From: Candidatus Anstonellales archaeon
GTDB lineage: Archaea; Micrarchaeota; Micrarchaeia; Anstonellales; J096
NCBI GenBank assembly: GCA_038890615.1
Contig: JAWAFI010000006.1
Location: 1-18,352 of the forward strand
DNA length: 18,352 nt
Reading direction: 5' to 3'
Part shown: positions 1 to 18,352 of the stretch, piece by piece
How the letters are laid out: each line of letters begins with the position of its first letter
Numbering within the stretch: position 1 is the stretch's first letter
Translations under genes and position numbers: made by a program
The notes under the pieces: model-generated
The model's database searches: none
What the model was told of the DNA's origin: nothing
What the model saw: the letters and a program-made list of their open reading frames with translations, nothing else

Positions 1-530
1 TTTGCAGTGCCGTTGGTGAAAGGAGGCGTGTAGTTCACCATGAATGGCCTTGTCTCTCCTGGAGCCAAGGATGGGAAGTAGGTCTGGTTTGGCACTGCCC
101 AAGAGGTGTCTGTGCTGACTGTTATGTTGAGGGGCACTTCGCCAAGGGCAGTCAAGAAGCACTGCCCGCTAACTGAGCCGTATGGTTCAGCATAGAGTAC
201 ATGTGGGTCGCAGTATAAGGTATAATTGAGGGAAACATTGACTATTACTATTACGCTGTCATTCCTGAGCCCTGCATTGGGCTCATCTCCCATTATTGTT
301 ATGTTCGCCCAGTCATTTATGAAGGGCGGGGTATAGTTCACTAAGAACTGTCTTGACTCACCAGGAGCAAGTGATTCAAAGAAGGTCTGGTTTGGCACTG
401 CCCAAGAGGTGTTTGTGCTGACTGTAACATTAAGGTTGCGGTTGCCTGTGTTGTTCAAGTAGCAATCTCCTACTACTGATCCCCCTGCAGGTGAATAGAG
501 CTGGTGGGGGATGCAGTAGAGAATGTAATC
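1..530 (-). repeat. Two tandem 101-aa (303-nt) Ig-like repeats, second truncated by window edge
   Basis: [11 protein letters not shown]...GDCYL...[37 protein letters not shown] versus [11 protein letters not shown]...GQCFL...[37 protein letters not shown]. Nucleotides 80-122 and 383-425 match at 42 of 43 positions. Confidence 0.9.
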
Positions 531-3500
531 ATAAAGAGCAAGGTTTGCTTTAGTCATAGGCACATTGAACTGGTGGAAAAGCAGGAACTCTGGAGAGTTA
601 GAATCTGTAGAATAAGCAATTGAGTTTGAAGAGCCGATTGAAAGGTCAGTGAATATAGAAGCGGATGAAACCTTCTGACCATTTACCCACAAGCTGCTTG
701 TCCTTACTGCAAACATATCCCTCAAAAAGGAGTCAGGGAATATTTCCTTCCTGTATATATAAGGCGGTGCGATGGGAGCCCCGCTTCCAGGAACCAGCAC
801 TCCTGCTGGGTTTTCAACTACCCAGTCGGTTGTTGGTATTGCAGGATTCTTCCCAATGTCTTCTGAAACAAGAGCCCTTTTGGTAATGCTTTCATGGGCT
901 CCCTGTGCATCAGAGCCGAGGCGGTAAACTACTGGAATGAGCGCTATGTTTGAAGAAGTGTCAAGCCTCTGGCCGCAGACAACCCCTGTTGGGCAGCTGC
1001 CTTTAGCAAGGGCAATCCAGCCAGGGTTGGTTGCTGTTATGTTTATCTTATGCACCCCTGCTGAAAGCATTGATGAGGGAATCTCAAGCAAGTACCTGCC
1101 TGAAACAGTGCCATTGTATTTCTCGCAGGCAATGAAAATCAGCTTCACATCGCCGTTCTTCCATGTGAAAGAGCTGTTGCTGTCTGAAGAGGTAAGCAGG
1201 TACTGGGAATCTATATACCAATCAGCAGTAAACGAGGAGAGGCTTTGAACTCCATCCATATAGAATATTACATAATCCCCATCAGGAGTTATGCTTTCTG
1301 TGGTTGAGCTAAGGCGCACATTGTAAGTTGTATTCATGTCCATTATCCCATTGCAGGTAACAAGCTCCATTTTTGTGCCGCTTGAGGTTGATTCTGCCCC
1401 GCTATAATAAACCCTGCTTGTTGGGATGGTGGCATTAAACATCGCCAAGGTTGAGGATGATGGCGGAACCAAATAACTCGCTGCATAAAGGGTTTCTGTC
1501 CTGTTGTTCTGCTTGTCGTCAAGTGAGGCAAGCACCTGAATATCAGATGGGAATGGGAGATCGTTTATAAGATTCACTGTCAGCATATAAGTTTGGCCTG
1601 CTGAAACATTCTCCTCTACCTCATACAATCCCCTTACTGGATAATTAGATGTGCTTAAGTAAAGCGGAACCAAGGAATCAACTGAGTAGTAGTAGGCAGC
1701 CCTAACTCCATAGCCAGTGGCTAACGAGGGGAGGCTCTTATAGGAAAGGTAGAGCGGGCTTGCCTTCACAAGTGAGGTGCCCTTGATTGTATACCAATAA
1801 TTCTTGTCAGCTGATGAAACATATTTTGAAATGACCTGCAATGGGGAGTTGAATTGGTCATACCACACCTCCTCTGCTCCCCTTGGATAGAGGTCCATTG
1901 CTATAAGCTTTGAAGGCAGATAAACCTTCTGCTTCATAATAGCTGAAATTGTGTGCGGCATAACAGGCCAATCACTGTCATCAAAGCTTGCATACTTGGC
2001 AGTGTTTATATCAAAATTGGCAGCAGGAGCAGTGCGCCATAGTATAGGCGAATAATACCTGTTTATGACTCTTATGTAAAGCGCATTTGCTGAAAGCGTG
2101 TAAGGAATGTAGATCAGCCTGTTGAATGAGTAGGTTGAGAGAGGCTCAACCTCCATATCATCAAATATCTCTGAGTAAAGGAGCACAGAAGTATTTGAGG
2201 AATTTGTTGCCCCATATATCTCAATGGCGTAAATGCTCATGGTTGTGTTAAGGGTGTTTGTTAAGTTTAACGAAATGTTGGCATAGTATGCCTTTCTTGC
2301 GCTAACTGATGCCTCTGCCCCTATTGATAGCTGCTGGTTTAGGACCACTTCTCCAAATTCCTGTTCGTAGGGCCTTTCAATCTCAAGCTTTACCACTTTT
2401 GACAGATCGGTAGGGAATGGGCCCCAGGTAGTGCCACTAATCTCTGCATTAATCTGAGAGACTCCTTCAGGTATGTTGAATGGGAAGTAGTTGCTCCAAG
2501 CGCTTGTTGAATAATAGCCATCTTTCTCACCTCCATATCTGCCTACAAGGACGCCATTCACATAGAGGGAAACCACCCCTGTTTCTTCATATGAAAGAGT
2601 GTGGTAAAGGTAAGCCTTGCCAAGAGTGGCTACTGGGCTGTAAAGCTTGAACGAGCCAAGGGCTCCTTGCCTTGACCAATCCCCAGGCCATCTCTCATCG
2701 AAGAGCGTGCTGTTGTTTGCATATTTTCGGGCACCAAATGAGTATTGGTGGAACCCTGTGTATATGACTATTGGAGTAACCGCCCTAAGCTTAAGCAATG
2801 TATCGCTTGGAACAGTGTCTGGAATGTAGAAGTGGAGAAGCTTTGAAGAAGTGCCTGGCTCAAATACCAAACCTGATTCACCATAAATGTCAGCAACGAA
2901 CTGGGAAGTATTTGATGAATTTACCAAATAAATGTGCACTGTATTGAAAGTAAGATTACTGTTCTGGTTGTTAGTTACTGTTAAGCGCACATCGTTCCAG
3001 GCACCAGAGTAGGGCCCTCCACTAGGCATTTCAGCAGACAATGAATAAGCAGATTGATTAGGCGAAGTGATGGTTGCTGAAGAGGTTGCATTAAACACCT
3101 CAAATACCCTTAAGTAGCTAGGTTGCGGATAATCACCGTTCTGTGAAGTGCACTTGAAAGTAATGTTCTTTCCTATTATGCCTGGCTCCCTTCCTCTGAA
3201 AACCCCATCTGTGAAAACCTCGCATTGGCCTGAAAAGTCCATTGAAGTGTCTATTACCTCCTGCCATGAGCTCCCTGCCCAAGTTGTCCTGCCATAGAAA
3301 GCTCCTTTATACGGGCCGCTGTAAAGCTCCAGCCTATAAGGAATCCAATCTGAATAAGATGAATTTGCTGCTTGCGAGTCATTTATGCTTGTACCAAAGT
3401 AGTGGTTGTGCCAATAGCTTACCACTGGTATGCGCACCTGCCTGTATGCCTTTGCTTTTACGGTGTAATTATTAAGGCCTTCTGGAACATAAACCTGCAT

Positions 3501-6500
3501 TGAAACTACTTTAGTGCTTAACGGGCTTATTACTAAACTGCTGTATTCATTTTCGATGTAAAGGTCGCTAACCTTTCCTGTTGCGTTGTAGACCTCAAGA
3601 ACTATTGAGCTGAGCGTTATGGGAGAAATGTCATTGTTAGTAACGCTTACATTCACTATTTCCAAGTAACCTTCTCTCAATGAAGTAGTAAGCAGCTGGA
3701 CTTCTATTGGTGGTGATAATGGAGAAACTACATTGACTACTCCAGATGTCTCTATCTTCCTTGATACATAAACCACTGGTGTTCCTGTATCTTCTGTTAT
3801 GTAGTTAACCTTCCTTATCCCTGTACTGAAGTAAGAATCCATTCTCTGCCTGTTGTTATGCTCAAGGTTGCCATCATTTGAATAAACATTCACGCCATCA
3901 ACAAAAGTTGCAAAACCGTTTGGCTCAATCTCAACAGCACTTACATCAGGGGTTATGTAAATGTACTGGGCTTTTGTTTCATTGCCTGCAAGCCAAAGAT
4001 GCCCTCCATATGGTTTATAAGTAGAAAGCACGCTTGCATTGTAGGTATAAGTGCCGTTTAGCCCATCAGGTACATATACAAAGAAGGTGAAATTCTTCTC
4101 TTCATTGGCTATCAGCTGGAGCCAATTACCAGATGAAGAATTATCAGCTCCTTCACGTGCTATTAGGGAGTGCACAAGAACATCACCATCGTATATGTCA
4201 ACCTTAAGTCCCCTAAGGCTTGCTTGGCAAAACTCTGTTTCTACTCGGTAGTTGTTGTTATTCCTCATCTTCACGTTTATTTGGTTAGTCCTTCCTGCCT
4301 CAAGGTTTGGAGGCATTGTAACTTCAAGGGTTACATCTAAGTTGCAAACAGGCAGAGTGGCGTTGTTATCTCCTTCAGAGATTTCTGGAATTATGTTTGA
4401 TGGATCTACTGAAACGCTTACGTTGCTCCTTGCCACATCCCCAGGCACGTCAACATCAACTTGGTACCTTATGCTTTCATCCGGATTAAGGGCAGGCACT
4501 GAAAGGGTATGCTTGACATCTCCGTTTACAGAAAATTGTATGGTAGTTGGCGCTGTTGGCATACCTCCAGTATTCTTTACCTTTGCAGTAACCCATTCCT
4601 TCTCCCCACTTTGAGAAATTAATGCATTGGTTAAGGGGCTCATCTCAACTTCTAAATTGCCTATCTCAAGGGTTATTGTGCCATTGTTGGTTGAGTTGCT
4701 TATCTCGCCCGGCTCAGGCACAACTTCCATTTTTATTACTCTTGTGCTGTTTGAGCCCGCCATATCAACCATTTGGATTACCTGAACAGTGTCGTGTGGG
4801 TCTACATTGATCACCTGCGGTGTGCCCAGCAGTGTGCCATTGTCCCACCAGAACCGCACTGTGGTGGTGCCAGGCATTCCACCTATGTTGTACACTGTAA
4901 TGTTCAGCAGGAAAGTGCCGTTCGGAAGAAGGGTTACTGGGTTATACGATGGGCTGTTTAGTATGTTTTTCATGCATCCTGGGTTTGTTGTAGTCGACAA
5001 GGTGTATGGGAAGGTTGGCGAAGTTTTAACAACACTGCAAACGCTGTAATCAGGAGGGGTAGGCTTAACTTTTATTTTATCAGTTGCAATATCATTGTTG
5101 GTCTTCTTAGAATCCATCGGATACGACTCGTAGTAAGTGTATATCTCTACAGAGCCCTCCAAATCAGTGCTTGATCCGTACTGCCTTGGGGCAATGAAAT
5201 CATAGGCAAGGTTCTCTCTGCAAGGAAGGGTGTTGGAGTTACCTAATAGGTAGCTTGAGGTAGAATTGCCATTAAGGAAAACTCTCTTTGGCCTCGGCTG
5301 CTGGTAGCAGTAATCATCCCCTTCATCAAGATACTTAAAGTCGCTAGAGTTTCCTGACTCATTCCACCTTAGCGCAAGGAAAACGCTTGCATTGTGGCTT
5401 AAGAAATTCGCCAATACAACATTGAACCTTACTAAGGTGTCCTCATAAACCTCTGTTGCAGAGGAGTTTGAGAAGTCTAATAAGTCTAGGGAAATTATTG
5501 AAGGGTCGGCTCCTTCTAAAACTGTGAATGTTGTTGAAAGGTTGTTGTTTGACTTGTTTGCCTCAGGAAGCGTCCCATCAGGGTCAACAACCAGAGTGAG
5601 ATTATAATCTCCCTTTAGCGGGTTCCACCAAGTGTACTCCTTTGAGATGTTGCACATTGATGTCTGGTTCGCAACCACTTCCACCATGCAGGATGCAAAA
5701 TAGGTTTCATTTATCAGGAGAGTTGCGTTGGCAGCAGAAGCGCCTGTTCCTATGTTGGTGACATATAAGAGAATTGTAAGATTTTCCCCTTGGGCAAGGT
5801 CAGGGGTAGCAGAAACGCCATACTCTAAGAGTATGCTCCTTGGGGAGGATGGGTGGGTATAATAAGGATCATTAACTATATTAGTTTCCCTTGAGCCATC
5901 GTATACTGCTATGTTCAGAGGCACTATATCAGGAAGGAACTCCTGGACGATTCCAATATCTTTGGCCCTTGGCACTGAAGGAAGCGGGTTTATTACATTT
6001 GGAGAGGAAGCAAAATTGTTCACATCATCAGAAAGGAATTCAGAAACTGGGTATGTAAATGGAGCATCCCTATCATATTCAACAATTGGCACAAGTATTG
6101 ATTGGTAAGAAAGGTTGTACTGTACGCGGTACTTAACCGTAAAGTATTGGTTTTTCCCTATATAAGGAGTAGTAGTTTCGTTAAGCACATCGCTGAATAC
6201 TATTGAAGTTTCATTGTAAGATATACGCCCTGAAGGTATTAAGCGCTCTATTCCGTTGGCGTCAACTATCCTTGCATCAGCAACAGTGCTTGGTATAACT
6301 TCGCCTTCAATCCATGTATCAGTTATTGTGAAAGAACGGCCTTCCCTATAGTATGGGTATTTTACCTTGATAGACACTTGAATATAATTAGGATAGGTTG
6401 AGCTCCCTTTGGTCTTGTTTATGCTTGATTGCGAGAATATCGGCTGGGAAATGGAATCTGTTGAATAGAGTATGTCTATATCTCCATCCCTGTCCAGGTC

Positions 6501-9500
6501 AGCACACGAAAGAGCATTTATACCCTCTCCTATGTTTTTGACAACCTGCTGGCTGAACACGCCCTCCCTGTTCCTGAAGTATTCTATTTCGCCTATGAAG
6601 TCGCCGCTAACTATGTCCAATGCGGACATGTTAAGCTCCATGTCACCTGTGCAAAGACCATAAAGCTTTGCGTTGGAATGCAGGTTCATATAAGTGCTTG
6701 TTACATTGAAGCCCATTGAGCCATTGTTAGCTATTATGTTGAGCTGGCCTCCGTAGTCGCCTGCTGCAATGTCTATGTTCCCATCATTGTCATAGTCTCC
6801 TGCAGTGAGCCCCCTTGGGGAAGGAAGCGTTGCCACTAAGCCCCCAAAGGAGAGTGAAGAGCCGCTGTTGATAAGTATGTATAAGTCATTCCCATTAGCA
6901 ACTACCAAGTCGATGTAGCCATCTTTGTTGAAGTCGCCTGATGCCAATGCGCATGAAGGCAAGGGCCTCGTAGTTCCATAAGCATAGGAGAAGGAGCCAA
7001 AGCCATCGTTTGTGTAAACCAAGACGCTTCCATTTTCATAACCTATTGCAATGTCCTGGTAAAGGTCCCTGTTGAAATCTCCAGAAGCGCCTGAGCATGC
7101 TCCTGTAGTAGAAAGGTTGGCTGTATTTGTGAAGTTCCTGAAGTAAGATGTTGAATATATCAAAGAGGTATCATTCCTCACAAGCACAAAATCAACATAC
7201 CCATTCCCATCAAAATCGCCTGTTGCTATGTCAAGCGCTCCTGCAAAGTTTATTCTGGGCTCTAGAAGGTAGTCAACAGGCACTTCTGTAAGAACAGGCG
7301 GCACGTATATCCTTATCTGGACTGATTCTGTGTCATTTATTCTCGGCGAATACTCAAGCACAGTAATGTTTGCAGTTCCGTTCTGGGTCTCATCAAGAGG
7401 AGGCATTACATAAAGAGTTAGGTTTGCTGAATCGTTTGCTGAAAGGTTAAAGTATTGCGTTCCGTTTATGTAACATACCCACGTAGGCTTGCAGGTAACA
7501 TTTGAAACAACATAGTAGGCAGTGTCTCTGCCTTTGTTTGAGATTGTTATGTTGAATGCGCTTCCAGAGCCGATTGGTGTGTAAACATAGGATGGCGCAG
7601 TTATTGCTAGGGTTGGAAGCTGAACTGTGAGCGAAAGCTGCTGGTTCCTTGCGCTCTCGCTGCTGTTTGCGGTCAAATTGAAGTAATAAGGAGTTGAGGA
7701 AACGTTTAGGGATGGGGTTATGTTTATTTCTAGAGTGGTTTTCTCGCCTGCTGCCAATGATGGTATGGATGTCTGGTTAAGGATACAGGTTGCATCATAG
7801 CATACAGCTCCAACAGTTACAGCTGTTGAAGGCGCATCACCTATGTTTGTTACATTCAAAAGAAGCACAGTGCTGTTAAGCCTTGTAAGGTTCTTCTTCT
7901 CTATTGTAAAGTTGAAATAGGCGCCTTTGACAGAGGCGCTTACGTTTTTTAAGAATGCCCTCACGCTATCGTTGGCAATTAGGGTTATGTTTGCGCTTTG
8001 GAAGTTGTAGTCTAAGGGTATGTAAGCACTAACATTTATGCTCTCATTTGCGCCTGGGTTAAGCAAAACCGATGAAATGTTTAGGTTGCATGTCCAGCCA
8101 GCAGGGCATATTACTGAGATATTTACTTCCCAAGCAATTGAGCCGTTGTTGGTAAGATTTTCAGTAAAGCTGTTCCACTGGCCCCTAAATAATGTCTGCG
8201 GCTCAGTTTGCCATGCAAACGAAGGCTGGCGTATGAAAATAGTTATATCTGATTTTGATATCTTTACTGAATCGTTAGCTACTGCCTTTATCTTTGCTTC
8301 ATATCTAGTTTCACTATAAGGCACAATTATTGTTAGGTTGAGGTCTTTTTTCTGCCCTGGATTTAGGGTAAAGGATGATTCGTTGAATGCACAGGTCCAC
8401 CCAGCAGGGCAATCCTCAATTGAAACAGCTATTGTTTTGGGATTTGCCCCTGTGTTGCTTATCTGCTGTATTGAATAAGAAGGCACTGTTAGATTGGCAG
8501 AAACGTTGGTAGTGTTCCAAGACATACCCAAGTCAAGGTATATTGTGCCTGTCTTTGACCATGTCCAGCGGTTCCTATAATCCACTGCAGTGTAGGTTGC
8601 GCTCCTTTGGGAAGCCGTCTCAAATAAAGGAACCCATGCATAAACGGTGATTGTTTTCTTTTCTCCTGGATTCAGGCTAGCAATCGTTTCATTCAAGGAG
8701 CAGAGCCAGCTGGAATAGCATGAAATAGAGAGCGAAGCGTTTGCTGGGGCATCTCCTCTGTTAGTGACATTGACCTCAAAGGAATTATTGGCACCACTAT
8801 CAATAGTTGGGCTGTATATCTCCCAGTAAATGTAGGGAGAAAGCATGTGCACCAATGTAGTGTTCGTTGAATTTTTGAGATGCCAGTCGCTTGCCTTTAT
8901 TGTTACTGTGGTGTTCACAGTGCTCCAGTTGTATGGCACCGTAATATTCAGCGAAATGTTGCGGTAGCTGTTGTTTGGCAGGTTGGCTATAAGGGATTCA
9001 TTGAAAGTGCATGCCCACTGGGCAGGGCAGTTGTGCGTTAGCGAAAGATTGAAAGCATTGCCGTTTCCTGTGTTGTTGAGGAGTATCTCCACTGTAGAAG
9101 TGACATTTTCACTGACATTTACAAGTGGGGGGGAAACCACTGAAACATTCGGCTGAAGCAGGTAGAACAAGAGGGAGTTGTTTGCCTTTGTTGTATTTTC
9201 GTTTGAGGCATTGGCTATAAGATAAACTACCTTGCTACTTGCATATTCATAAAGATAGGGGGAAATATTGAAAGAAACATTAACTCCTTGCATGGGGGTA
9301 ACATTATCTATTGTTGCATTCAAAGCTTGGCATATCCAGTTTATAGGACACTGAATGGAAGGAGTTACATTAAAGGCCGTCTCATTTCCAAAGTTATAGA
9401 GAGTTGTATTGTAAATATAACTCATTCCTGGATGTGTTTCTAACACATCCTCTGCTTCATACACTAACCATACTGTTGAAAGCGAATAACTTAGAGGTAA

Positions 9501-12473
9501 GTAATCCCAATTAGCTCCTGCACTATGGTTGTAAGGATTATCACATATGCCGTCTATGTTTGCATCAACACAACCTAAGTTTTCAGAATAGAAATTACCG
9601 CCTATAATGGGCCCTCCTACTATGTTAGTCCCGCTTGTATTCGTAATGTTCCAGAAAAGATTTGGAATATTTAGAGAAACGTTTACACTCTTTGAATTAT
9701 ATAAGAACGCATTATTATAGATGATTCCTTTAACATTAGCAGAAGTTATACAAATCCCTCCTTTTTTCCACTTAGTTATATTGTTTAATGAAATGTTTAG
9801 ATCTGTTGGTTGGTCTTCTAATTTAATTGCGCATGATTTTTTATTAAGACCATCAAAGGTGTTGTTGTATATTGTTGTGTTTTTTGGAGAACTATATATA
9901 CGTATTGAAGCATCTAACTCACTTGAATTAGACACAAAAGCATTACCTATGATACTTAATCCATAAGATGCTCCTCCTTGCTGCAAGGATGTTCTGTTAA
10001 AAACATTTTCTTGAATGGTTAACCAGCCGCCAACATCAATAGGCCCAGCAAAACTATCAAATGTATTGTTTTCCACAACCGTGATAAACGAATTATTTGA
10101 GGAGTGTGAATCTATCCTAGCAGATGGTGCGCCATAAAAGTAGTTTCCGAAAACCAAGAAATAGCCATAATATGGTGAGATGCCACTAAGCCTAAAAGAT
10201 GAATTATTGAACGTGTTGTTAATAAGAAGACCAATTTCAGAAACGTTGCTTGAATATGAATATATTCTTACATCATTATTCACGAAGTTGTTATTCTTTA
10301 CAGAACCAACTAATTTAGCTGAATCCCCAGTAAAGTAAGCATCGCTAGTTTCGAAGAAGCTATTTTCAACGTTAAAAGTTGAAGGAAGTGGGCCAGTAAA
10401 ACCAAAGTAAACATCTCCTACTCTAAATGAGCTATTTTGTATATTTACAAATGAAGATCTAACACCTTCACAGTTGATCCTGTGCCTTCTGAAATATGAA
10501 TTTATTATTTCAATGTTTTTAGCAGAGTATATGTCCATAAACCGGGATGATAAATTAGTAGTGGCATTTACATTCTCAATAAACCATATAGTCCTTTCTA
10601 CTCCTGTCTCATCAGTGAATATTGAACCGGTAGAGTTCAGGAAGGTGGAATTAGTTATGTTTATGTAAAGGAATCCATAGTTGCTGCTAACACTAACACC
10701 ATTCTCTATTAATGTTAGGTTTGAATTGAAAACAGTTACGTTGTTAAATACCAATGAAGAGTTATTGGCAAGCGTATCTATATTGAATCCCCTTCCGTGC
10801 ACTCTAATGTTTGTAGAATTTATTGTGACATTCTCCAGTTTAAACTCTAATCTCATCCTCTGATAAAGCACATTTCTAATACCAAAATCATGATAATCTT
10901 CAATATAACTATTTGTGAGATAAAGATAATCTGATAGAGGAGAGAAATAGGAAAAAGATCTAGAGTTTAGAGCAAAGGTTTTGGCTGGATTAATGATATG
11001 GTTATTATCAATGCTTGTCGTTGATTTTATAATATCAATGCCGCTTCCATTTATCATAGTAAGGTTATTTAACGAGATATTGTAAGAAAAGCAAAGAATC
11101 ACTTGTTCAAAAACACTGTCGTTTATGCTTATGTTGCTTTTATTAACAATGCTTAATATCGGGCCGTTGTTTGAAGAAGAATTTATGAAAACAGGGCATC
11201 TTTTTTGGTTTGAAATGTCAGGAAATCTTATATGAAAAACTTCCGCAGGATATAAATTAGGTGGTTTATAGAAATAAGTATTTTCTACTATAAAGTTGGC
11301 TATTCGGTTCAAGCCACTAGAAGAAGAAAAGGGGCCATAACGTATAATGACTTTCCTAAAAGCATTTATGTATATGTTGGTATTATTTATTGAAATGTTT
11401 TCACGGTCATTAAAGGGAGAGGAAAAGGATAAAACAGGATAATATGGGTTTATGAATGAATCTTCATTGGAAGAGCTATCAGCCGCCCCATTAACATTTA
11501 TCGTTGTGTTATTTATAAAAACATTACTAGCCTCAACAACATTTATTGAAGTGCCATTTCCTGATGTTATGGATACATTATTCAAGAATATGTTAGAAAG
11601 ATAACTGTCAAAGTTTAGAGTTGTGAATGGTATGGTTGTATAGTTTGAAGAATAAAATGCTGAATTTAAAATAGCTATATTACTTGAACTAGTTGCATAT
11701 AATCCTGAAGTAGAGGTAGTAGTTAGCTGATATGAATAAAAGTCAAGGTTGTCTATTATTAGGTTGTTTGTGTTCCCTTGTATATATACAGCATACCGCC
11801 AGTTATTTGAATTGTAGTGGGTTATTCTAGTATTATTTATAGTTGTATTGTAGGAAGCATCTAAATAAATCAACCTAGTGCCATTCAGAGATGAGGAGTT
11901 TATTAAAGTGTTATTTGAAGAAATTATAGAAAGTGCATATGATATTCCATCACCTGAAGTAGTTAATTGATAGACATCCATATCATTTATGACTGTGTTT
12001 CTGCTTCTCGTAATAGTTATATTGCTCCTGTTCATTGAGCCAATAACGTTCAGCCTGTCTATTGATATGTTCGTTGAAGCATTTATATATAAAGGATAAG
12101 TGGAATTGACAGTTGTAAGATTCCATGCATTAACGTTTGAAACATTTGAAAAAAGGAACCCATAACTCGCGTTGGTGGAATTTGTTAAGGTTATGTTAGT
12201 AATGTTTATATAGCCATTTGGAGTCGGATTTGAAACAAAAACACCTATTCTTGAACCATTCAGATTTATAATAAAACCATCGCCATATAAAGATACATTT
12301 TGGGAGGTTATGTTTATGCAAGGGCTAGCGTTAGCAACAATGTCAGCAACAATGTGATATTCTCCTGGAGAGTTAATAAGGGTGCATGAATTTATATCAA
12401 TTGCAAAAGAAGGGATGAACAAAAATAAAATGCTAAGCACAGTCAGAGCATAATCTTCCTTCCATTGATCCAT
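1..12473 (-). CDS. Giant secreted multidomain cell-surface protein / putative adhesin (beta-helix + Ig/CARDB + FG-GAP + lectin-like modules), >=4157 aa, 3' end outside window
   Basis: ATG at 12473-12471 follows an in-frame TAG (12482-12480). Translation begins [45 protein letters not shown] and, in the same frame, ends ...[20 protein letters not shown] at the window edge. Manual translation of most of the span found no stop. An internal stop would also have produced a long minus-strand ORF in the track, and none is listed. Recognisable surface-protein motifs occur throughout. Confidence 0.95.
545..4340 (-). repeat. About five 195-240 aa units, each an Ig-like domain plus a divergent jelly-roll (galactose-binding-domain-like) module
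   Basis: A recurring Ig strand: FVYVPDGL (~4075), VYVPEGL (~3490), FYIPDT (~2825), IYIPYT (~2105), ATIPTS (~1425). Intervening aromatic-rich segments carry FDDSDW (1968-1985), FDERW (~2690), SYSDW (~3345), LYVNGVLVG (~2555), FVDG (~3900), FTDG (~3210), YIYRKEIF (~750) and LWVNGQKV (~680). Confidence 0.55.
4350..5935 (-). repeat. Four CARDB-like domains
   Basis: LPDIVP...VTNIG...[23 protein letters not shown]...DSKKTNN; PPDYSV...VYNIGG...[14 protein letters not shown]...VKNTGG...[16 protein letters not shown]. The first and last match the CARDB VDPxNxxxExxExNN signature well. Confidence 0.8.
6465..7250 (-). repeat. Six FG-GAP/VCBS-like Ca-binding repeats (beta-propeller)
   Basis: First Asp of each motif: [11 protein letters not shown] (7217), [11 protein letters not shown] (7079), [11 protein letters not shown] (6935), [11 protein letters not shown] (6797), degenerate [12 protein letters not shown] (6644), [11 protein letters not shown] (6500). 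Period 46-51 aa. Confidence 0.9.
7300..9480 (-). repeat. Seven tandem ~103-aa Ig-like (CARDB/NEW3-like) repeats with a conserved Cys pair
   Basis: CPINWIC (9330-9350), CPAQWAC (9009-9029), CYSSWLC (8700-8720), CPAGWTC (8391-8411), CPAGWTC (8088-8108), CYDATC (7785-7802), CKPTWVC (7473-7493), spaced 303-321 nt. Each is preceded by N-x-G, and several are followed by an LNPG/LAAG turn. Confidence 0.85.
9490..12400 (-). repeat. Right-handed parallel beta-helix region (NosD / pectin-lyase-like), ~970 aa
   Basis: N-terminal cap [17 protein letters not shown]...[16 protein letters not shown]. Many N/I/S-rich rungs (IYNNTF, VENNTF, INNTF, VKNNNF). C-terminal cap [41 protein letters not shown]...DYLPL (~9495-9655) matches the end of archaeal NosD-domain surface proteins. 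Confidence 0.85.
12402..12473 (-). other. Putative Sec signal peptide of the giant protein (aa 1-24)
   Basis: Hydrophobic core [13 protein letters not shown] followed by S-F-A, which fits a small-x-A signal peptidase I site. The n-region (MDQWKEDY) is atypically acidic. Confidence 0.7.
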
Positions 12474-12530
12474 AGATATCTATAGTAATAGCAACTGTTT
12501 ATTTTAAAATATATACTACTATAATACTCT
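12474..12530. promoter_or_regulatory. Compact divergent promoter region with a palindromic TATA-like box
   Basis: 57-bp AT-rich spacer between head-to-head ATGs. Perfect palindrome TATTTTAAAATA at 12500-12511. Its core TTTTAAAA lies at -29..-22 from the infB ATG and -36..-29 from the giant-gene ATG. No Shine-Dalgarno on either side, consistent with leaderless transcripts. Confidence 0.65.
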
Positions 12531-14252
12531 ATGCTCAGATCTCCTATAGTGGCTGTGTTAGGCCACGTTGACCATGGCAAAACCACATTATTAGACAAGA
12601 TTAGAGGAACTGCCGTGGCAAAAAAGGAGGCTGGCGGCATAACCCAAATGATTGGGGCTAGCTACATTGAGAAAGAGACGATAGAAAGGATAATTAAAGA
12701 TCTTAAGGGGCGCATGAAGGCAGAAATAGGAATTCCTGGGCTGATGTTCATAGACACGCCAGGCCACGAGGCCTTTACAAACCTGCGCGAGAGAGGGGGC
12801 AGCATAGCCGACATAGCAGTTCTTGTAATTGACATGATGCAGGGAATACAGCCGCAGACAATTGAAAGCATGAGGATACTCAAGAGCTTCAAAACTCCTT
12901 TTGTGGTTGCTGCTAACAAGGCAGACATGATAAGGGGCTGGAAAAAGACAGGGGAGAGCTCTATACTGAAGGCAATGGAAGCGCAGAGCAAAGCAGTAGT
13001 TGAAGATATGGAGCAAAAGATTTATGCGATTATAGGCCAACTTTCAGAGCAGGGCTTCAACTCAGAAAGGTTTGACAGGGTAGCTGATTTCACAAAGGAA
13101 GTTGCAATAGTGCCGATAAGCGGAAAAACAGGAGAGGGAGTTGCTGAGCTGCTGCTAATAATCGCAGGGCTTACCCAGCGATTTATGCAGAACGAGCTAA
13201 ATTTAGAGGCAGAGCAGGCAAAAGGAAGCATAATGGAAGTAAAGGAAGTAAAAGGCATGGGCACTGTATTAGATGTAATACTTTATGATGGAGTCCTTAA
13301 GAAAGGGGACTCTATTGCTTTCCTAGGCAAGAATGGGTTGGTAAAAAGCAAGGTAAGAGGGATAGTTGTAACTGACTCAAAAGAAGGGCTTAAGTATGTA
13401 GACCAAGCAGTCGCAGCAGCAGGGATAAGGCTCATAGGTAGCGACTTTGATGAGGCAGTAGCCGGATCTCCTCTTGTCGTAGAAAAAGACGGTAAAGAAG
13501 GCAAGATAATAAGCAGTGAAATAAAGAATATAATATTCAACAGGGAAGGCATGGGTTTGATTGTAAGAGCAGACACGTTAGGCTCACTTGAAGCATTGGT
13601 AAGGCTTCTTGAAGAAAAAGGCCACAAAATAAGAAAGGCAGACATAGGCAACATCACAAGGAGCGATATATGCGAGGCAGATGCGCTCAAAAAAGAGGAT
13701 TTAGCGCTTGGTGTCGTAGTTGGGTTCAATGTAAAGGTCAATGAAGATGCAAGGGAGGAGGCAAACAACAGGAAAATCCGCATAATAAGCAGCAATATAA
13801 TTTACAGGGTAATTGAGGAATACGATGCTTATAAGCTTGAGACAGAGAGGAATAAGAAAGAAATGCTTATGGAATCCCTTCCTTACCCAGCAAAAGTGCT
13901 GCCCCTGAAGAGCCACTGTTTTAGGGTTTCAAAGCCATGCATTTTTGGCATTGAAGTGCTTGATGGAATTTTAAAGAAAGGGGCATGCCTTATGGATTCT
14001 GAGGGAAGGTTTGCAGGAGAAGTGAGAGGAATCCAGGAGGATAGGAACGAAATAGAAAGGGCTGAGAAGGGAAAGAAGGTTGCAATCTCTTTGGACGGAG
14101 CAGTTTATGGAAAGGAGATAAATGAAAACGTCATCATTTACTCAAAAATGGGAAGGGATGAGATAAGGGCTTGGGAGGAGAACTTGGAATTGCTAGATGA
14201 AAGTGCAATAAGGGCCCTTGAAGAGATAAAAAGGATAGTTTACAAACTATAA
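12531..14252 (+). CDS. infB: Translation initiation factor aIF5B (IF-2 homolog), 573 aa
   Basis: [20 protein letters not shown] (G1), [38 protein letters not shown] (G3), NKAD (G4), [11 protein letters not shown]. It lacks the long bacterial N-terminal extension, as expected for the archaeal form. Confidence 0.98.
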
Positions 14253-14819
14253 CATCTTTACCAGCTCAGCCCAGGATTTTGCTGCTTTATTCTTTGGCTT
14301 TTGAAATCTTGGTTCCATGGGGCATCAAAAAGTATTGCTTTGCCTTTTTCTGAGAATTTCAGCAGGAATTCAGGGTAATCGTCAATAAGCACCTTCACCC
14401 TATGCTTCATGCACACTGAAGCCTTGTCCTTCCTCTCCTTTTTAGCCCAATATCCAGTGAATTCAATATAAGAAAACTTTTTGGGAAAATAGCTCTCTAT
14501 CCACAGGATAGTTTCTGGCCTAATTATATCAGGTCTGGATGTGATTACCATAAGGTCATAATTTTTGGAGAGTTTTTCTATACTTATTATGGCTCCCTTC
14601 ATGGGCTTTATCTGGGAGAAAAAAATCTGATGAATAGAAGGAAAGTATTTTGTTGAACGCCTGCCTCTCATTCCCTCCCCAGACCTCCCAAAATCTAAAA
14701 GAGAAGAAATCGTTCTTTTTGAAAGAAGTTCCATAGGTCGCATTGTGCCATTCTATTAGTTTTGAGGTGAAATCAGCTAATACATCATCAAGGTCAAACG
14801 CAACCATAGCCTTTTTCAT
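14247..14819 (-). pseudogene. HAD-superfamily 5'(3')-deoxyribonucleotidase (NT5C)-like gene with two frameshifts; ~190 aa if repaired
   Basis: Motif I AFDLDDVLADF lies in ORF 14556..14819. Motif II ITSR, the motif III Lys, motif IV LIDD and APWN lie in ORF 14258..14743. The frames join at a T7 run (plus-strand A7, 14619-14625). The expected tail [14 protein letters not shown] (stop 14249-14247) is back in the first frame after ~14284. Confidence 0.8.
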
Positions 14820-14877
14820 CGTTGATCAACGGAATAAATAAGGTAAACTTTTTAACTATTAGCGAAAACAACGCTTT
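14820..14877. promoter_or_regulatory. Divergent promoter region between the NT5C-like gene and the OFOR operon
   Basis: Purine-rich AGGTAAAC then TTTTTAAC (14849-14856), i.e. -29..-22 from ATG 14878, fits archaeal BRE-TATA spacing. Perfect palindrome CGTTGATCAACG at 14820-14831. Confidence 0.55.
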
Positions 14878-16629
14878 ATGTTTATCTGGAAAATAGGAGG
14901 AGAAGCAGGTTTCGGCATAATGAACGCAGGCCTTGCTTTTGCAAGGGCATTCTCAAGAAATGGCTACTGGGCTTATGTTTATCCAGAATACCCTTCGCTC
15001 ATAAGAGGAGGTAATAATACAATACAAGTGATTGTTGATGAGAAAGAAGTCAATGCGCCTAGGGCAAATTGCGATGTGCTTGTAGCACTTGACCAATTCA
15101 CTCTCAACTCACATAAAGAATGTGTACGTAAAGGAGGAGCAATACTTTACGACCCTGCAAGCGCAAAGCCAAACGGAGGGGAAGCAGAGTATATTCCAAT
15201 TGAGTTCAGCAAGATTGCTTTGGAAGCAGGGGGCCTGCTTTATAAAAACATTGTAGCAGTGGCTGCATCCCTTGCTGTGTTTGGAGCACCTCTTGAAACC
15301 CTTTATGCAATAATAGAGGATGAGTTCAGAAGAAAGGGTGAAAAGGTTGTCAATGAAAACAAGAAGGCAGCTGAAATGGGCTACAGGGCAATAAGCAAAA
15401 GGCTTAGTTATGTAAAGAAAATAGGGGAGCCCATGCCTGTGCTGAGTGGAAACCACGCAATAGCTTTAGGGGGGATAAGCGCAGGGCTGAATTTTTACGC
15501 AGCCTATCCAATGACTCCGGCCTCCTCAATACTCCATGTGCTTGCGGAGATTGAAAAGAAGCACAACATAGTTGTAAAGCAGGTTGAGGACGAGATTGCT
15601 GCAATGAACATGGCAATAGGCGCAAGCTATGCAGGAGCAAGAGCAATGGTTGGCACTTCAGGAGGTGGCTTTGCCCTGATGACAGAGGGAATGAGTTTGG
15701 CAGGGTTGTCTGAAATACCAATCACAGTAGTACTTGCGCAAAGGACAGGGCCTAGCACTGGGATGCCTACTTGGACAGAGCAGGCAGACCTTCTTTTTGC
15801 GCTTTATTCAGGGCATGGGGATTTTCCGAAAGTCGTGATTGCGCCTGGGGATCATAAGGAGGCGTTTGAGTTGACAGGGAAGGCACTTAACATTGCAGAG
15901 AAATACCAGGTGCAAGTTATCCTCCTAAGCGACAAGTTCCTTTCCGAAAGCTGGAAATCAGAAAGGGGGCTTGAAAACCTTAAGGTTCCTATTGAAAGGG
16001 GCAAGATACTTTATGAGATTAAGGAACAATTAGGAGAAGGGGAGAGGTTCAAGAGGTACAAGTTCACTGATGATGGGGTTTCACCAAGGCCCATTCCTGG
16101 AGTGAAGAATGGAAGGCACGTTGCAACCTCCTATGAGCACTGGGAGAACGGCTTTTCTACAGAGCACTTCAAGACGAGGAAGGAAATGGTGGATAAAAGG
16201 GCCAAAAAGCTTGAAACATTGAGGAAGGATATCGAGTTGCCAAAAACATATGGGAACGGTGAGAAAGTCCTTGTTTGCTGGGGTTCATCAAAGATGCCTG
16301 TGCTTGATGCCCTGCCTGAAATTGAGAGGCTAGGCTACAGGGTTGTGCACTTCAGCTATGTTTATCCCATTCCAATAGAGGCAAAAAAAGCTCTTAAGGG
16401 CAAAAAGCTGGTTGCCCTTGAAAACAATAGCACAGCACAGTTCTCAAAACTCCTAAAGTCAGAGTTGCTGGTTGAGCCAGATGCATATATACTTAGGTAT
16501 GATGCAAGGCCCTTCTTTGTAGAAGATGTAATAGATGCTTTGAAAAAGGTGGAGGCAGGGGAGAAAAAGGTTGTTGTTTTCCACGACACACCTTACGAGC
16601 CATACACGCTTACTAAGGTGGTTGAATGA
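14878..16629 (+). CDS. korA: 2-oxoacid:ferredoxin oxidoreductase subunit alpha (fused gamma-alpha), 583 aa
   Basis: IGGEAGFGI and YPSLIRGG (gamma domain); SGNHAIALG, YPMTPAS, QVEDEIAA, TSGGGFALMTE, QRTGPSTGMPT. Substrate specificity cannot be determined from sequence. Confidence 0.95.
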   Translation: MFIWKIGGEAGFGIMNAGLAFARAFSRNGYWAYVYPEYPSLIRGGNNTIQVIVDEKEVNAPRANCDVLVALDQFTLNSHKECVRKGGAILYDPASAKPNGGEAEYIPIEFSKIALEAGGLLYKNIVAVAASLAVFGAPLETLYAIIEDEFRRKGEKVVNENKKAAEMGYRAISKRLSYVKKIGEPMPVLSGNHAIALGGISAGLNFYAAYPMTPASSILHVLAEIEKKHNIVVKQVEDEIAAMNMAIGASYAGARAMVGTSGGGFALMTEGMSLAGLSEIPITVVLAQRTGPSTGMPTWTEQADLLFALYSGHGDFPKVVIAPGDHKEAFELTGKALNIAEKYQVQVILLSDKFLSESWKSERGLENLKVPIERGKILYEIKEQLGEGERFKRYKFTDDGVSPRPIPGVKNGRHVATSYEHWENGFSTEHFKTRKEMVDKRAKKLETLRKDIELPKTYGNGEKVLVCWGSSKMPVLDALPEIERLGYRVVHFSYVYPIPIEAKKALKGKKLVALENNSTAQFSKLLKSELLVEPDAYILRYDARPFFVEDVIDALKKVEAGEKKVVVFHDTPYEPYTLTKVVE

Positions 16630-17486
16630 TAACAGTAAAGGATTTCACCCCAAAAGAAAATCCTCAGTGGTGCCCGGGGTGCGGAAACTTTGCTATAATA
16701 AACAGCATAAAAGCAGCACTTGCAAAAATGCAGGTAGACCCTGAAGATGTGGTGGTTGTTTCTGGGGTTGGGTGCTCAGGTAAATCAAGCCATTATATCA
16801 ATACTTATGGGTTTGAAGGCCTGCATGGAAGGACACTGCCGCTTGCAGCAGGAGTTAAGCTCACAAACCACGATCTGATAGTGATTGCTGAAGGGGGAGA
16901 TGGGGATGGGTATGGGATAGGAATGGGCCACTTCGTGCATTCGCTAAGGAGAAACCTTGATTTAACGTACATTGTGCATGACAACCAGATTTATGGACTG
17001 ACCACTGGGCAAACTTCACCTACTACTCTGAAAGGAATGAAAACAAGGACAAACCCTGAAGGGGCAGTTGAGGAGCCAATACACCCAGTGGAGCTTGCCC
17101 TTTCTTGTGGTGGCTCTTTTGTTGCAAGAGCCTATGCAGGAGACCTTCCGCATATGGTAAATATAATTGTAGAAGCAATAAGGCACAAGGGCTTCTCTTT
17201 TGTTGATGTGCTGCAGCCCTGCATAACATTCAACAAAATGAATACCTATGCTTGGTTCCAGGAAAGGGTATACAAGCTAGAAGAAGCAGGGCATAATCCA
17301 AAGGATTGGAATGCAGCAATGGAGAAGGCAAGAGAAGAAATTGAAACAAACTATAAGAAGCTTCCAATAGGCATTTTCTACAAGGAAGAAAGACCTACAT
17401 ATTGGGAAGAAGCAGGCTATCCAAAGCCTTTGCTCAAGCTTGAGCAGAAAACCTCTGTTGAAGAGGACCTGAAGGCGCTGATGTAA
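16626..17486 (+). CDS. korB: 2-oxoacid:ferredoxin oxidoreductase subunit beta (TPP-binding), 286 aa
   Basis: WCPGCG, SGVGCS, LHGR, GGDGDGYGIG...DNQIYGLTTGQTSPT, LQPCITFN. ATGA overlap with the alpha subunit. Confidence 0.95.
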   Translation: MITVKDFTPKENPQWCPGCGNFAIINSIKAALAKMQVDPEDVVVVSGVGCSGKSSHYINTYGFEGLHGRTLPLAAGVKLTNHDLIVIAEGGDGDGYGIGMGHFVHSLRRNLDLTYIVHDNQIYGLTTGQTSPTTLKGMKTRTNPEGAVEEPIHPVELALSCGGSFVARAYAGDLPHMVNIIVEAIRHKGFSFVDVLQPCITFNKMNTYAWFQERVYKLEEAGHNPKDWNAAMEKAREEIETNYKKLPIGIFYKEERPTYWEEAGYPKPLLKLEQKTSVEEDLKALM

Positions 17487-18163
17487 TGGATTCAAAAGAG
17501 GAAGAGCTTGAGGCAAAAATAGGTAAGGAAGAACTTGAGAAGAGAGTAAAGGCAAAGATTGAGGAATTCTCAGGGCTGATTACTCGCCAGCTGGCTATAG
17601 AAGCATTGCATAAAGAAGTATTTGGGGAAAGGAAAGGTATGGATATAGAAGGGGTTTTGGAAGCGCTTGGCGATGAGGAAGAGTTCAATGGAAAGCCTCG
17701 CAGGATTGCTTTTATAAGGGAAGGCGAGAAAAGAGTGGAAATGGCTTTCTGGGGCGAGCTTGCAGTTGCACTCCGCAGGATACTTATTGGGAGCAGGATA
17801 AGGGTTACAAAATGCTATGAGAAATATGGTATTATTAACACAGGTTTCAATTCTCAGTTGGAGGTATTGCAGAAGGTGGTGCCTGTTGAAGATTATTCAG
17901 AGCTTAAGGAAGGGAGAATTAACATAAAGGGGCTTGTGTTTGAGATGCAAGGTGTTAGGGAAAGGCAGGATGGGAGGGAAATGGGAGAATTTGCCTTAAC
18001 TGATGGGAGGAAGAAGGTCAGGTGCATCGTGTGGGATGGAGTTGATAGGGTGGAAAAGCTTAGACCTGGCGACATAGTTTTGATAGAGGGCGCCGAGGTC
18101 AGGGAAGGTGAGGTGCATATTGGGAGAGGAACCAGATTCCTTGTGAAAAAGAAAAAATTATAG
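17486..18163 (+). CDS. Replication protein A-like OB-fold single-stranded nucleic acid-binding protein, 225 aa
   Basis: N-terminal helical segment EELEKRVKAKIEEFSGLITRQLA resembles archaeal RPA. Two OB-fold-like units: ...RVEMAFWG... and ...LTDGRKKVRCIVWD...LRPGDIVLIEGAEVR...VHIG. TAATG overlap with the beta subunit. Confidence 0.75.
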   Translation: MDSKEEELEAKIGKEELEKRVKAKIEEFSGLITRQLAIEALHKEVFGERKGMDIEGVLEALGDEEEFNGKPRRIAFIREGEKRVEMAFWGELAVALRRILIGSRIRVTKCYEKYGIINTGFNSQLEVLQKVVPVEDYSELKEGRINIKGLVFEMQGVRERQDGREMGEFALTDGRKKVRCIVWDGVDRVEKLRPGDIVLIEGAEVREGEVHIGRGTRFLVKKKKL

Positions 18164-18181
18164 AACTAGGCAGAAGAAAAG

Positions 18182-18292
18182 ATGAGATTGAAAGAGGTTC
18201 CTAAGGCAGGTGAGACTGAACTGAAGTCTTGGCTTAAAAAATGCAATAAGAAGAAAGCAAAGATATTTATTGAGAAAATGCTGGGCAGTTAG
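18182..18292 (+). CDS. Possible small basic hypothetical protein, 36 aa
   Basis: MRLKEVPKAGETELKSWLKKCNKKKAKIFIEKMLGS-TAG. Co-directional, fills the gap after the RPA-like gene, and is purine-rich like its neighbours. No homology evidence. Confidence 0.35.
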   Translation: MRLKEVPKAGETELKSWLKKCNKKKAKIFIEKMLGS

Positions 18293-18323
18293 GGTTAAAA
18301 AGTGATTGGAGGAAAGATAAATT

Positions 18324-18352
18324 ATGGAGGTTAAGGATAAAGAGAAGGAGGG
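18324..18352 (+). CDS. Probable start of the next gene (MEVKDKEKE...), truncated by window edge
   Basis: ATG at 18324, with GGAGGA (18308-18313) as a possible Shine-Dalgarno. Open to the end of the window. Confidence 0.4.

Follow-up and report, generated by a model that had tools for sequence, protein, structure and literature searches.

A giant Anstonellales surface protein may be held by a donor strand from a neighboring membrane anchor

The question of how DPANN archaea hold on to a host is open; many giant surface proteins in this group lack a visible anchor. One contig (C6) of an assembly from the Micrarchaeota order Anstonellales (G000; 94% complete, 7 contigs) raises this question, as it carries a giant minus-strand frame that is open at the contig end. 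The whole contig, 18,352 nucleotides, is the window analyzed here. A preliminary description had proposed a secreted, multidomain, single-chain tether of DPANN origin, with its anchor, if any, beyond the window. The origin (from kinship to genome G011 and the source names in cluster P0002) and the secreted multidomain nature were supported; comparison of aIF5B and the OB-fold gene with named collections added nothing useful to the placement. Because the real C terminus of the giant is an incomplete Ig domain, which acts as a candidate acceptor, we no longer regard it as self-anchored; the giant most likely docks on a separate membrane protein.

The giant frame (3–12473) contains 4,157 codons and 0 stops; the remaining five frames have 190–322 stops each and longest open runs of 73–120 aa. 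It is listed only if open ends are allowed, because it runs off the source sequence. A 17,870 b Logan unitig from run X1 spans window positions 392–13000 without a single difference or gap; positions 1–412 are covered by two short X1 unitigs. X1 is possibly the source sample of the assembly, so this agreement is that of a second assembly, not of an independent sample. The one RNA run compared gave no sequence at the locus. The frame is cut at the contig end because C6 breaks within a collapsed repeat of ~101 aa. A 173 b unitig joins window positions 109–1 to C5:135–198, and the rest of the gene, 181 codons and a TGA, occupies C5:1–546, which gives a full length of ~4,395–4,496 aa (4,294 aa if zero repeat copies are missing). 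The uninterrupted 12.47 kb frame therefore stands, misassembly and frameshift are rejected, and the suggested leftward extension reaches a stop. The features of the locus are as follows.

1–12473, minus strand: giant surface protein coding sequence, codons 1–4157, open at the contig end and completed on C5:1–546
1–134, minus strand: contig break; 134 nt match C5:1–134 at 129/134
3–533, minus strand: terminal Ig repeats of ~101 aa (303 nt period), copy 1 whole, copy 2 severed by the contig end
534–4343, minus strand: five units of an Ig domain plus a variable inserted beta domain, aa 2711–3980, no Pfam family
4344–5813, minus strand: CARDB-type Ig block, 2 significant domains and 2 by terminal motif only
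5814–6398, minus strand: beta-rich domain of ~195 aa, zero Pfam matches at E ≤ 3
6399–7241, minus strand: FG-GAP block, 6 motifs, aa 1752–2001 (Pfam FG-GAP_3, E 1e-26, 6 stretches)
7308–9473, minus strand: seven Cys-paired NEW3/NPCBM_assoc-type Ig repeats, aa 1001–1722 (Pfam NPCBM_assoc, E 5e-23)
9474–12401, minus strand: head, right-handed beta-helix region, aa 25–1000 (Pfam NosD at aa 819–965, E 5e-15)
12402–12473, minus strand: Sec-type signal peptide, aa 1–24, ending PSFA (by hydropathy, h-region aa 9–24)
12474–12530, no strand: AT-rich spacer of 57 nt between the giant gene and a divergent aIF5B gene, presumed to be the bidirectional promoter of both
C5:199–543, outside the window: acceptor domain (C5 codons 67–181), after the last repeat copy
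C5:543–2168, outside the window: partner gene, 541 aa, overlapping the giant gene by ATGA

Most of the domain order read earlier was recovered: the signal peptide, exactly seven Cys-paired repeats, and six FG-GAP motifs, which probably form a Ca-binding beta-propeller. Three claims held in part. The beta-helix has its NosD match at aa 819–965, and the other parts of aa 25–1000 are assigned from composition and pattern; two of the four CARDB domains are significant and two are recognized by motif only; and the five Ig-plus-insert units are present, with Ig halves that fold (pLDDT about 60–80), but the jelly-roll assignment of the inserts is unconfirmed (pLDDT mostly <50). The "DUF11-like" label was discarded, as it has no Pfam match. 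The n-region of the signal peptide is unusually acidic. Codon usage changes along the gene: GC3 is 0.29 in the head, below 97.5% of 204 long frames of this genome, and 0.45 in the rest of the giant. The giant carries about 200 sequons for N-glycosylation, no transmembrane (TM) helix, even at the C terminus, and no sequence match in the PDB at E ≤ 0.001.

The Ig-plus-insert units are common to genomes G018, G017, G004, G140, and G300. An AF2 model of units 2–3, built from 4 sequences, was of low quality (mean pLDDT 49), and its Foldseek matches were discarded (TM ≤ 0.2). Unit 3 matched nothing above 0.80 in the atlas, and no homologue of aa 2710–3980 was found among 7,999 shorter proteins scored. 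A genome search with aa 2711–3980 matched 2 of 400 other genomes, a lower bound, as it omitted G140 and G300 despite BLASTP E values of 1e-33 and 3e-32.

At the true C terminus, where a TM helix, a PGF-CTERM signal, or an enzyme had been expected, we found none of the three. Instead, the last domain is an Ig fold with no strand beyond F, and a pair of invariant Cys residues brackets it. The monomer model is confident (pLDDT 96), with F as its last strand; unlike this acceptor, all 7+ internal repeats of the giant have a further G strand. The domain has no Pfam family, and no sequence relatives were found in the PDB. The best matches in a VIA fold search are complete ASH/PapD-like domains (Z 9–10, about 90 residues aligned), FimA aligns at Z 7.9 (rmsd 3.0, 107 residues), and Foldseek returned nothing at E ≤ 0.001. 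The nearest Pfam cluster in the atlas is SCPU (0.79, a lead only), with the WxL cluster at 0.76. Pilins do not stand out in these fold comparisons.

The acceptor family occurs in 113 of 401 genomes of the phylum, usually in tip-pilin-chaperone-anchor clusters. A chaperone-like gene lies within 1.5 kb at 24 of 29 loci (9 of 14 among loci outside the profile-building set). Small members carry the motif [VIL]-x-[AG]-x-[VLI]-x-[VI] ahead of the first Cys, and large members are mostly without it. Five of five genus-g5 genomes searched (77%–88% complete) lack the domain. In the literature searched, mostly openly accessible texts, we found no description of this family in Micrarchaeota.

The partner protein consists of a signal peptide, a chaperone-like Ig domain, a TM segment, an internal signal peptide, a donor strand (aa 149–161, after a predicted cut at ..VYA|Q149), an Ig domain, a CarboxypepD_reg-like domain, and a C-terminal TM helix (aa 512–526) with a short tail, in place of LPxTG/sortase attachment. 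With a 6-sequence chaperone profile built without G000, the N-terminal half was the top match among 4,462 frames of this genome (E 2e-4); it also matches a G003 protein (E 5e-8). The same fusion of chaperone, TM segment, and second signal occurs in G003 and G011, there preceding a pilin. No homologue of aa 1–200 was found among 803 shorter candidates, and an order-wide chaperone search, with matches in just 3 of 176 genomes, did not pick up G140, G300, or G005. The chaperone family profile matches Enterococcus faecium WxLIP1 (9i25, 9i1y) at E 0.0011, with ASH/Hydin proteins scoring higher; hhalign gave this link a probability of 10%, and two further searches gave zero matches. In a comparison with the DUF916/DUF3324 membrane chaperone of the Elr/WxL pilus, the partner scores E 0.01 against WxLIP_PGBD (16.3 bits; cut-off 27.3) and shows no second domain.

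The C-terminal half matches anchors that are encoded separately in G005, G140, and G300 (phmmer E 7e-5 to 1e-3). Its likeness to the G018 and G003 anchors is not significant (E 0.06 and 0.004), and those were compared by architecture alone. The donor strand reads V-x-E-x-V-x-V, and Glu154 occupies a position that is Ala/Gly in family pilins and Ile/Leu in the G140, G300, and G005 anchors. The strand looks like a conventional G strand of an Ig domain (NETVEV in P0002). A signal peptidase match in this genome (TIGR02228) is below the family cut-off; PF00717 is the wrong family.

We modeled the acceptor together with the anchor. The ipSAE was 0.90, 0.90, and 0.91, compared with 0.08 for the best of 3 controls; our ipSAE mark is reached by 116 of 157 solved pairs and by 2 of 215 mismatched pairs. 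All runs agreed in 100% of contacts, with partner pLDDT ≥93. Residues 1–13 of the partner fragment sit between acceptor residues 6–21 and 97–112, and the pairs 108–4, 104–8, and 102–10 place the donor antiparallel to strand F. The model suggests that the first strand of the anchor fills the groove of the giant in donor-strand geometry, although the pass could stem from likeness to solved donor-strand complexes.

The reading that we favor, with a probability of roughly 70%, is that the giant serves as both tip and stalk in a donor-strand system that is assisted by a chaperone and has no polymerizing pilin. A fuller scheme, to which we give somewhat less than even odds, is that a lineage within Anstonellales reduced a chaperone-assisted pilus to one shaft-and-tip chain of 4,400–6,300+ aa that docks directly in its membrane anchor through donor-strand exchange; recombination would swap the head of this chain while stalk and plug are kept. 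In both readings, the overlapping partner gene of G000 would encode chaperone and anchor as one polyprotein, which signal peptidase would cut after its first and internal signal peptides. Internal cleavage would be needed because the modeled donor N terminus points to the stalk of the giant, away from the membrane. The products would be a membrane-tethered chaperone and a membrane-tethered anchor whose new N terminus is an orphan beta-strand; in the fuller scheme, the cut would generate this donor strand next to the chaperone at 1:1. The chaperone would shield the open groove while the C terminus of the giant emerges, and the anchor strand would then displace it, locking one giant to one anchor. 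About 20 Ig-like domains would carry the head up to ~100 nm outward (the reach proposed earlier, which we accept as an upper bound), where its ligand would be a host cell or a glycan on a surface; appendage length would be fixed by the gene and not by polymerization.

An unlikely alternative, though the strongest of those weighed, is that the giant caps a longer fiber, in which a small pilin, unassembled or too divergent to be found, lies between giant and anchor. The incomplete assembly leaves room for such a gene, a small pilin adjoins the tip gene in most clusters of the phylum, and the G186 locus has tip, pilin, chaperone, and anchor. However, two profiles found exactly one acceptor domain and no free small pilin in G000, no gene separates giant and partner, and the anchor strand itself fits the groove. 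Three relatives, G140, G300, and G005, share the pilin-less layout, each with a single acceptor match, also when the query came from G140; all four genomes are incomplete (90%–94%). The G140 giant (at least 6,317 aa) is collinear with that of G000 over aa 1149–2649 and 2877–4141 and ends in the same acceptor domain, with RCC1/DUF2341/Fn3-type domains replacing the beta-helix region.

We consider it slightly less probable still that the giant remains on the chaperone-like domain, cut or uncut, with the strand of that domain permanently in the groove and the second half of the partner serving another role. Of the genes near the acceptor, the chaperone-like one recurs most constantly, Glu154 is an odd donor residue, and a static platform was the earlier proposal for WxL clusters, as discussed in the Elr/WxL study (10.64898/2026.10.17.759780). 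Against this, the anchor strand inserts confidently, full-length, and antiparallel in the complex model, and G140, G300, and G005 retain separate anchors with an orphan N-terminal strand. It is improbable that the giant is released or sits noncovalently on an S-layer, its last domain being a complete ASH/PapD-like domain with an unrelated neighbor: the top structural matches and the confident partner-free monomer model would fit, but the acceptor stops at strand F, stand-alone homologues bear an N-terminal donor-type strand, gene order is conserved, and the complex model passes. An assembly artefact, whether a chimeric join where GC shifts (near aa 1000) or a false C6–C5 link, would accord with the low GC3 of the head and the possible origin of the assembly in X1, but is scarcely credible given the single unitig without differences, the bridging unitig, and the collinear G140 giant.

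The pilin-less donor-strand system that we favor is closest to the Elr/WxL pilus of Enterococcus faecalis (ElrA tip, ElrC/D pilins, ElrE chaperone, ElrB anchor), which the available part of its description confines to Bacillota and defines by chaperone plus pilin (10.64898/2026.10.17.759780). From that account, both systems have an incomplete Ig acceptor at the C terminus of a protein whose N-terminal payload varies, a tip without donor strand or TM segment, a membrane-tethered chaperone (here a putative one, of a family distantly linked by profile to WxLIP1) without an usher, and an anchor that donates a strand but has no acceptor, the strand running antiparallel to F (here by model only). 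By the model the archaeal system would work like the Elr/WxL pilus, yet it falls outside the WxL family: it has no WxL Pfam match (PF13731), and its donor strand departs from the consensus [ST]-x-[GA]-x-[VI]-x-F. It also differs in its ~115 aa Cys-bracketed acceptor, single-domain chaperone, TM anchor (LPxTG/sortase in Elr), fusion of chaperone and anchor via an internal signal peptide, and tip of ~4,400 aa (79 kDa in ElrA), and in that a small polymerizing pilin, present in many relatives, was not found in G000.

The Pam pili of Ca. Mycosynbacter amalyticus, a small-genome CPR epibiont, share donor-strand assembly, membrane-anchored chaperones, and an anchor, PamR, with an extra N-terminal strand and a C-terminal TM segment; in the portion of the source at hand they are reported as CPR-only, long polymers of two-domain pilins with a single small domain as tip (PamT), and the likeness is by description alone (PMC13278184). 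Chaperone-usher adhesins and pilins (FimH/FimA, PapG, CsuE, CsuA/B) share a C-terminal acceptor without strand G, a C-x-I..FG start motif, and weak fold matches, which are not above those to unrelated Ig folds; here, however, the two Cys bracket the domain, there is no outer membrane, and the locus contains no usher. Among archaeal filaments with strand donation, tafi, AbpA, threads, and cannulae are described, in the texts as far as available, as chaperone-independent polymers; for tafi, a tip and a membrane anchor have been proposed (TafC, TafF), but export is by Tat and the strand is accepted by the anchor, opposite to the polarity modeled here (PMC11821415, PMC12337348). SPEARE-type giants of nanohaloarchaea resemble the G000 giant as DPANN proteins of several thousand residues with a Sec signal, tandem Ig domains, and proposed host binding, but in the available part of that study they are membrane-anchored with a VirB4/TraG-like ATPase, and the G000 giant has no TM or ATPase match (PMC10266531).

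For one DPANN group, the finding offers a testable answer to the anchoring question: a socket of 115 residues and a plug of 13, both of which can be expressed for assays with no need to culture the organism. This putatively chaperone-assisted archaeal case contrasts with archaeal filaments described, in the sources as available, as chaperone independent, and with the Elr system described as restricted to Bacillota. If the reading is true, a pilus without a pilin would allow length to be encoded in a single gene, with one giant chain replacing a whole fiber, and host range would most likely be set by the swappable head.

The minus-strand frame at 3..12473 is open for all 4,157 codons, and each of the other five frames contains 190-322 stops. 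A single Logan unitig, from a hot-spring metagenome run that may be the same sample from which the assembly came, spans 392-13000 without differences; the giant frame of the preliminary description is thus a real gene. Between its start and the divergent aIF5B gene lie 57 nt. The window is the entire contig C6 of a genome (G000; 845,764 b, 7 contigs) rated 94% complete. The features, with those of the giant in order from its N-terminus, are:

12531-18163: housekeeping genes (aIF5B, NT5C-type nucleotidase, 2-oxoacid:ferredoxin oxidoreductase alpha and beta, OB-fold (RPA-like) protein)
18158-18352 (right end): part of a dispersed ankyrin-repeat gene family
3..12473, minus strand, giant N-terminus: signal peptide
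Giant head: beta-helix, with a NosD match at aa 819-965 and probably extending over the remainder of the head
After the head: seven Cys-paired Ig repeats
Next: six FG-GAP motifs
Between FG-GAP and CARDB: one domain without a family label
CARDB block: two significant domains and two at motif level
After CARDB: five Ig+insert units
Beyond these units: terminal Ig repeats

The domain series originally proposed stands for the Cys-paired Ig, FG-GAP and Ig+insert blocks and in part for the four CARDB domains, and neither the label "DUF11-like" for the middle domain nor "jelly-roll" for the inserts was confirmed. The 4,157 residues carry 197 N-glycosylation sequons. An Ig-like domain measures ~4 nm and a beta-helix of this size ~20 nm; with about 20 Ig-like domains plus the helix, ~100 nm is an upper bound, for a fully extended chain. 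The ankyrin-repeat family, also found at the ends of C1, C2 and C4, breaks several G000 contigs.

The missing end of the giant lies on contig C5. C5 opens with 134 nt that agree with the final 134 nt of the C6 part of the gene at 129 positions, all five mismatches falling within C5:3-25, and a 173-b unitig runs from window 109-1 on into letters matching C5:135-198 at a depth of 30.6, as against 12.3 for the gene body. From this overlap and the deeper unitig crossing the junction, the break falls in a collapsed repeat of ~101 aa that is present two or three times. The giant is therefore about 4,395-4,496 aa long, or 4,294 aa if no repeat copy is missing. C5 supplies 181 codons and then a stop; because the highest 19-residue hydropathy in this part is 1.65, it contains no TM helix, and the C-terminal anchor looked for beyond the window was not found.

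The giant ends in a domain that matched no Pfam family. Its AF2 model (45 sequences; pLDDT 96) is a beta-sandwich whose last strand is F; the giant's internal Ig repeats possess an additional G strand. Fold searches with this acceptor domain were ambiguous: complete ASH/PapD-like domains came on top (Z 9-10), followed by FimA (Z 7.9, rmsd 3.0 over 107 residues), and in Foldseek CsuA/B and CsuE ranked second and third, not significantly. Homologues (40 representatives at E<=0.001, one annotated in its source as "spore coat protein U-like") are either small and secreted, with an alternating strand before the first Cys, or large, with the domain at the end. The profile matches in 113 of 401 genomes of the phylum, counting G000 and one unpublished genome (G080), and our literature search found no published description of the family. 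Of the 29 top loci, 24 (9 of 14 when the profile seed loci are left out) have a signal-Ig-TM gene no more than 1.5 kb from the acceptor gene; E. faecium WxLIP1 is among the matches of that gene's profile (E 0.0011), ranking lower than Hydin-type proteins. Tandem pairs of acceptor-family domains occur in ~330-aa frames of many Micrarchaeota (e.g., G268:C33, G360:C4, G064:C14).

The start of the next gene on C5, the partner, overlaps the giant's stop by ATGA. Its 541-aa product has four hydrophobic segments (aa 6-20, 115-129, 134-148, 512-526), of which the third finishes V-Y-A and resembles a second signal peptide. The N-half matches a protein of another genome of the phylum, G003 (E 5e-8), and is the best of 4,462 frames for the chaperone-like family profile (E 2e-4); other comparisons with that family gave a weak match or none, and it appears to be a divergent member. 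The C-half matches stand-alone anchors of three further genomes (G005, G140, G300). In G003 and G011 a chaperone-like domain, a TM and a second signal are fused in the same way; there the gene goes on with a donor strand and a pilin domain, and the anchor gene that comes next overlaps it. Had the pilin been lost from between the two donor strands of such a layout, the G000 partner could have arisen. G011 and G000 belong to the same family; the protein P0002 is nearly identical to one of the G011 genes, and sources named in its cluster are Ca. Micrarchaeia and Ca. Anstonellales. The G011 anchor gene (L022:4067-7456, G011:C2) has one in-frame stop after codon ~251, and the G003 orthologue reads through.

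We modelled the acceptor (45-row alignment) with partner aa 149-263 (13 rows). The ipSAE was 0.90, 0.90 and 0.91, the best of three controls reaching 0.08; the mark used is reached by 116 of 157 solved pairs and 2 of 215 mismatched ones, counts that are only approximate for the alignments used here. The runs share 100% of contacts, with partner pLDDT at least 93. Modelled partner residues 1-13 run antiparallel to strand F and are flanked by acceptor residues 6-21 on one side and 97-112 on the other, as has been reported for Elr subunit donors of Enterococcus faecalis (bioRxiv 10.64898/2026.10.17.759780). The predicted docking may owe its score to resemblance to solved donor-strand complexes, and a Glu in the partner strand, where family pilins have Ala/Gly, speaks against it. 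We consider it probable (roughly 0.7) that the giant docks directly on the partner by a donor strand. In the mechanism we propose, the partner would be cleaved internally, a chaperone step would precede docking, one giant would dock per anchor (1:1), and the giant would bind a host. Archaeal strand-donation filaments are described as chaperone-independent in PMC11821415 and PMC12337348. The G000 system would work like the Elr/WxL pilus and the Pam pili of the CPR bacterium Ca. Mycosynbacter amalyticus (PMC13278184), but because no WxL domain, pilin or sortase attachment was found and its strand departs from the donor consensus, we do not class it as an Elr/WxL member.

In G000, two profiles matched no domain but the giant's own, and no second acceptor-family domain (free pilin) was found. 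G140, G300 and G005 (90-92% complete) have one acceptor match each, at the end of contig-truncated frames of at least 6,317, at least 1,783 and 118 aa, respectively. Downstream come a gene for a ~600-aa secreted protein, a signal-Ig-TM gene (weak as a chaperone: E 1e-4, 0.02 and no match) and one for an anchor whose N-terminal strand is an orphan. The ~600-aa proteins (L066:10748-12565, L068:5414-7204, L069:6043-7839) show a weak match (E 0.006) to the Bacteroidota-type Por secretion tail. Elsewhere in G000, two large secreted proteins whose ends lack a TM (C1:28359-32408, minus strand, 1,350 codons; C1:302148-313327, minus strand, 2,864 + 907 codons across an N gap) share a terminal domain finishing YGTYDYEI..P..LD.YTG.SG...WVEL; with C1:314549-316516 (signal peptide, orphan-looking strand, C-terminal TMs) they possibly form another docking family, unrelated to the first.

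The G140 giant is collinear with aa 1149-2649 (25.7%, E 3e-98) and 2877-4141 (22%, E 1e-33) of the G000 giant, and its N-terminal part has RCC1, DUF2341 and Fn3-type domains and no beta-helix match. GC3 is 0.29 in the G000 head as against 0.45 in the rest of the giant (genome mean 0.47, 204 frames), and Asn, Tyr, Phe and Asp codons are shifted in accord. Different N-terminal domains on a collinear stalk, together with this composition, suggest that the head has been exchanged.

Two overlapping genes share the stalk in G018 and G017 (L057:8091-9896, L062:1-1950); the product of the upstream one has no TM at its end, and another chain-to-chain joint may therefore exist there. The same stalk units occur in these genomes in proteins of 2,061 and 2,025 aa, each with its own terminal hydrophobic segment, and no acceptor domain was found in five of five genomes of their genus. 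This comparison suggests that the stalk either carries an anchor of its own or is plugged in.
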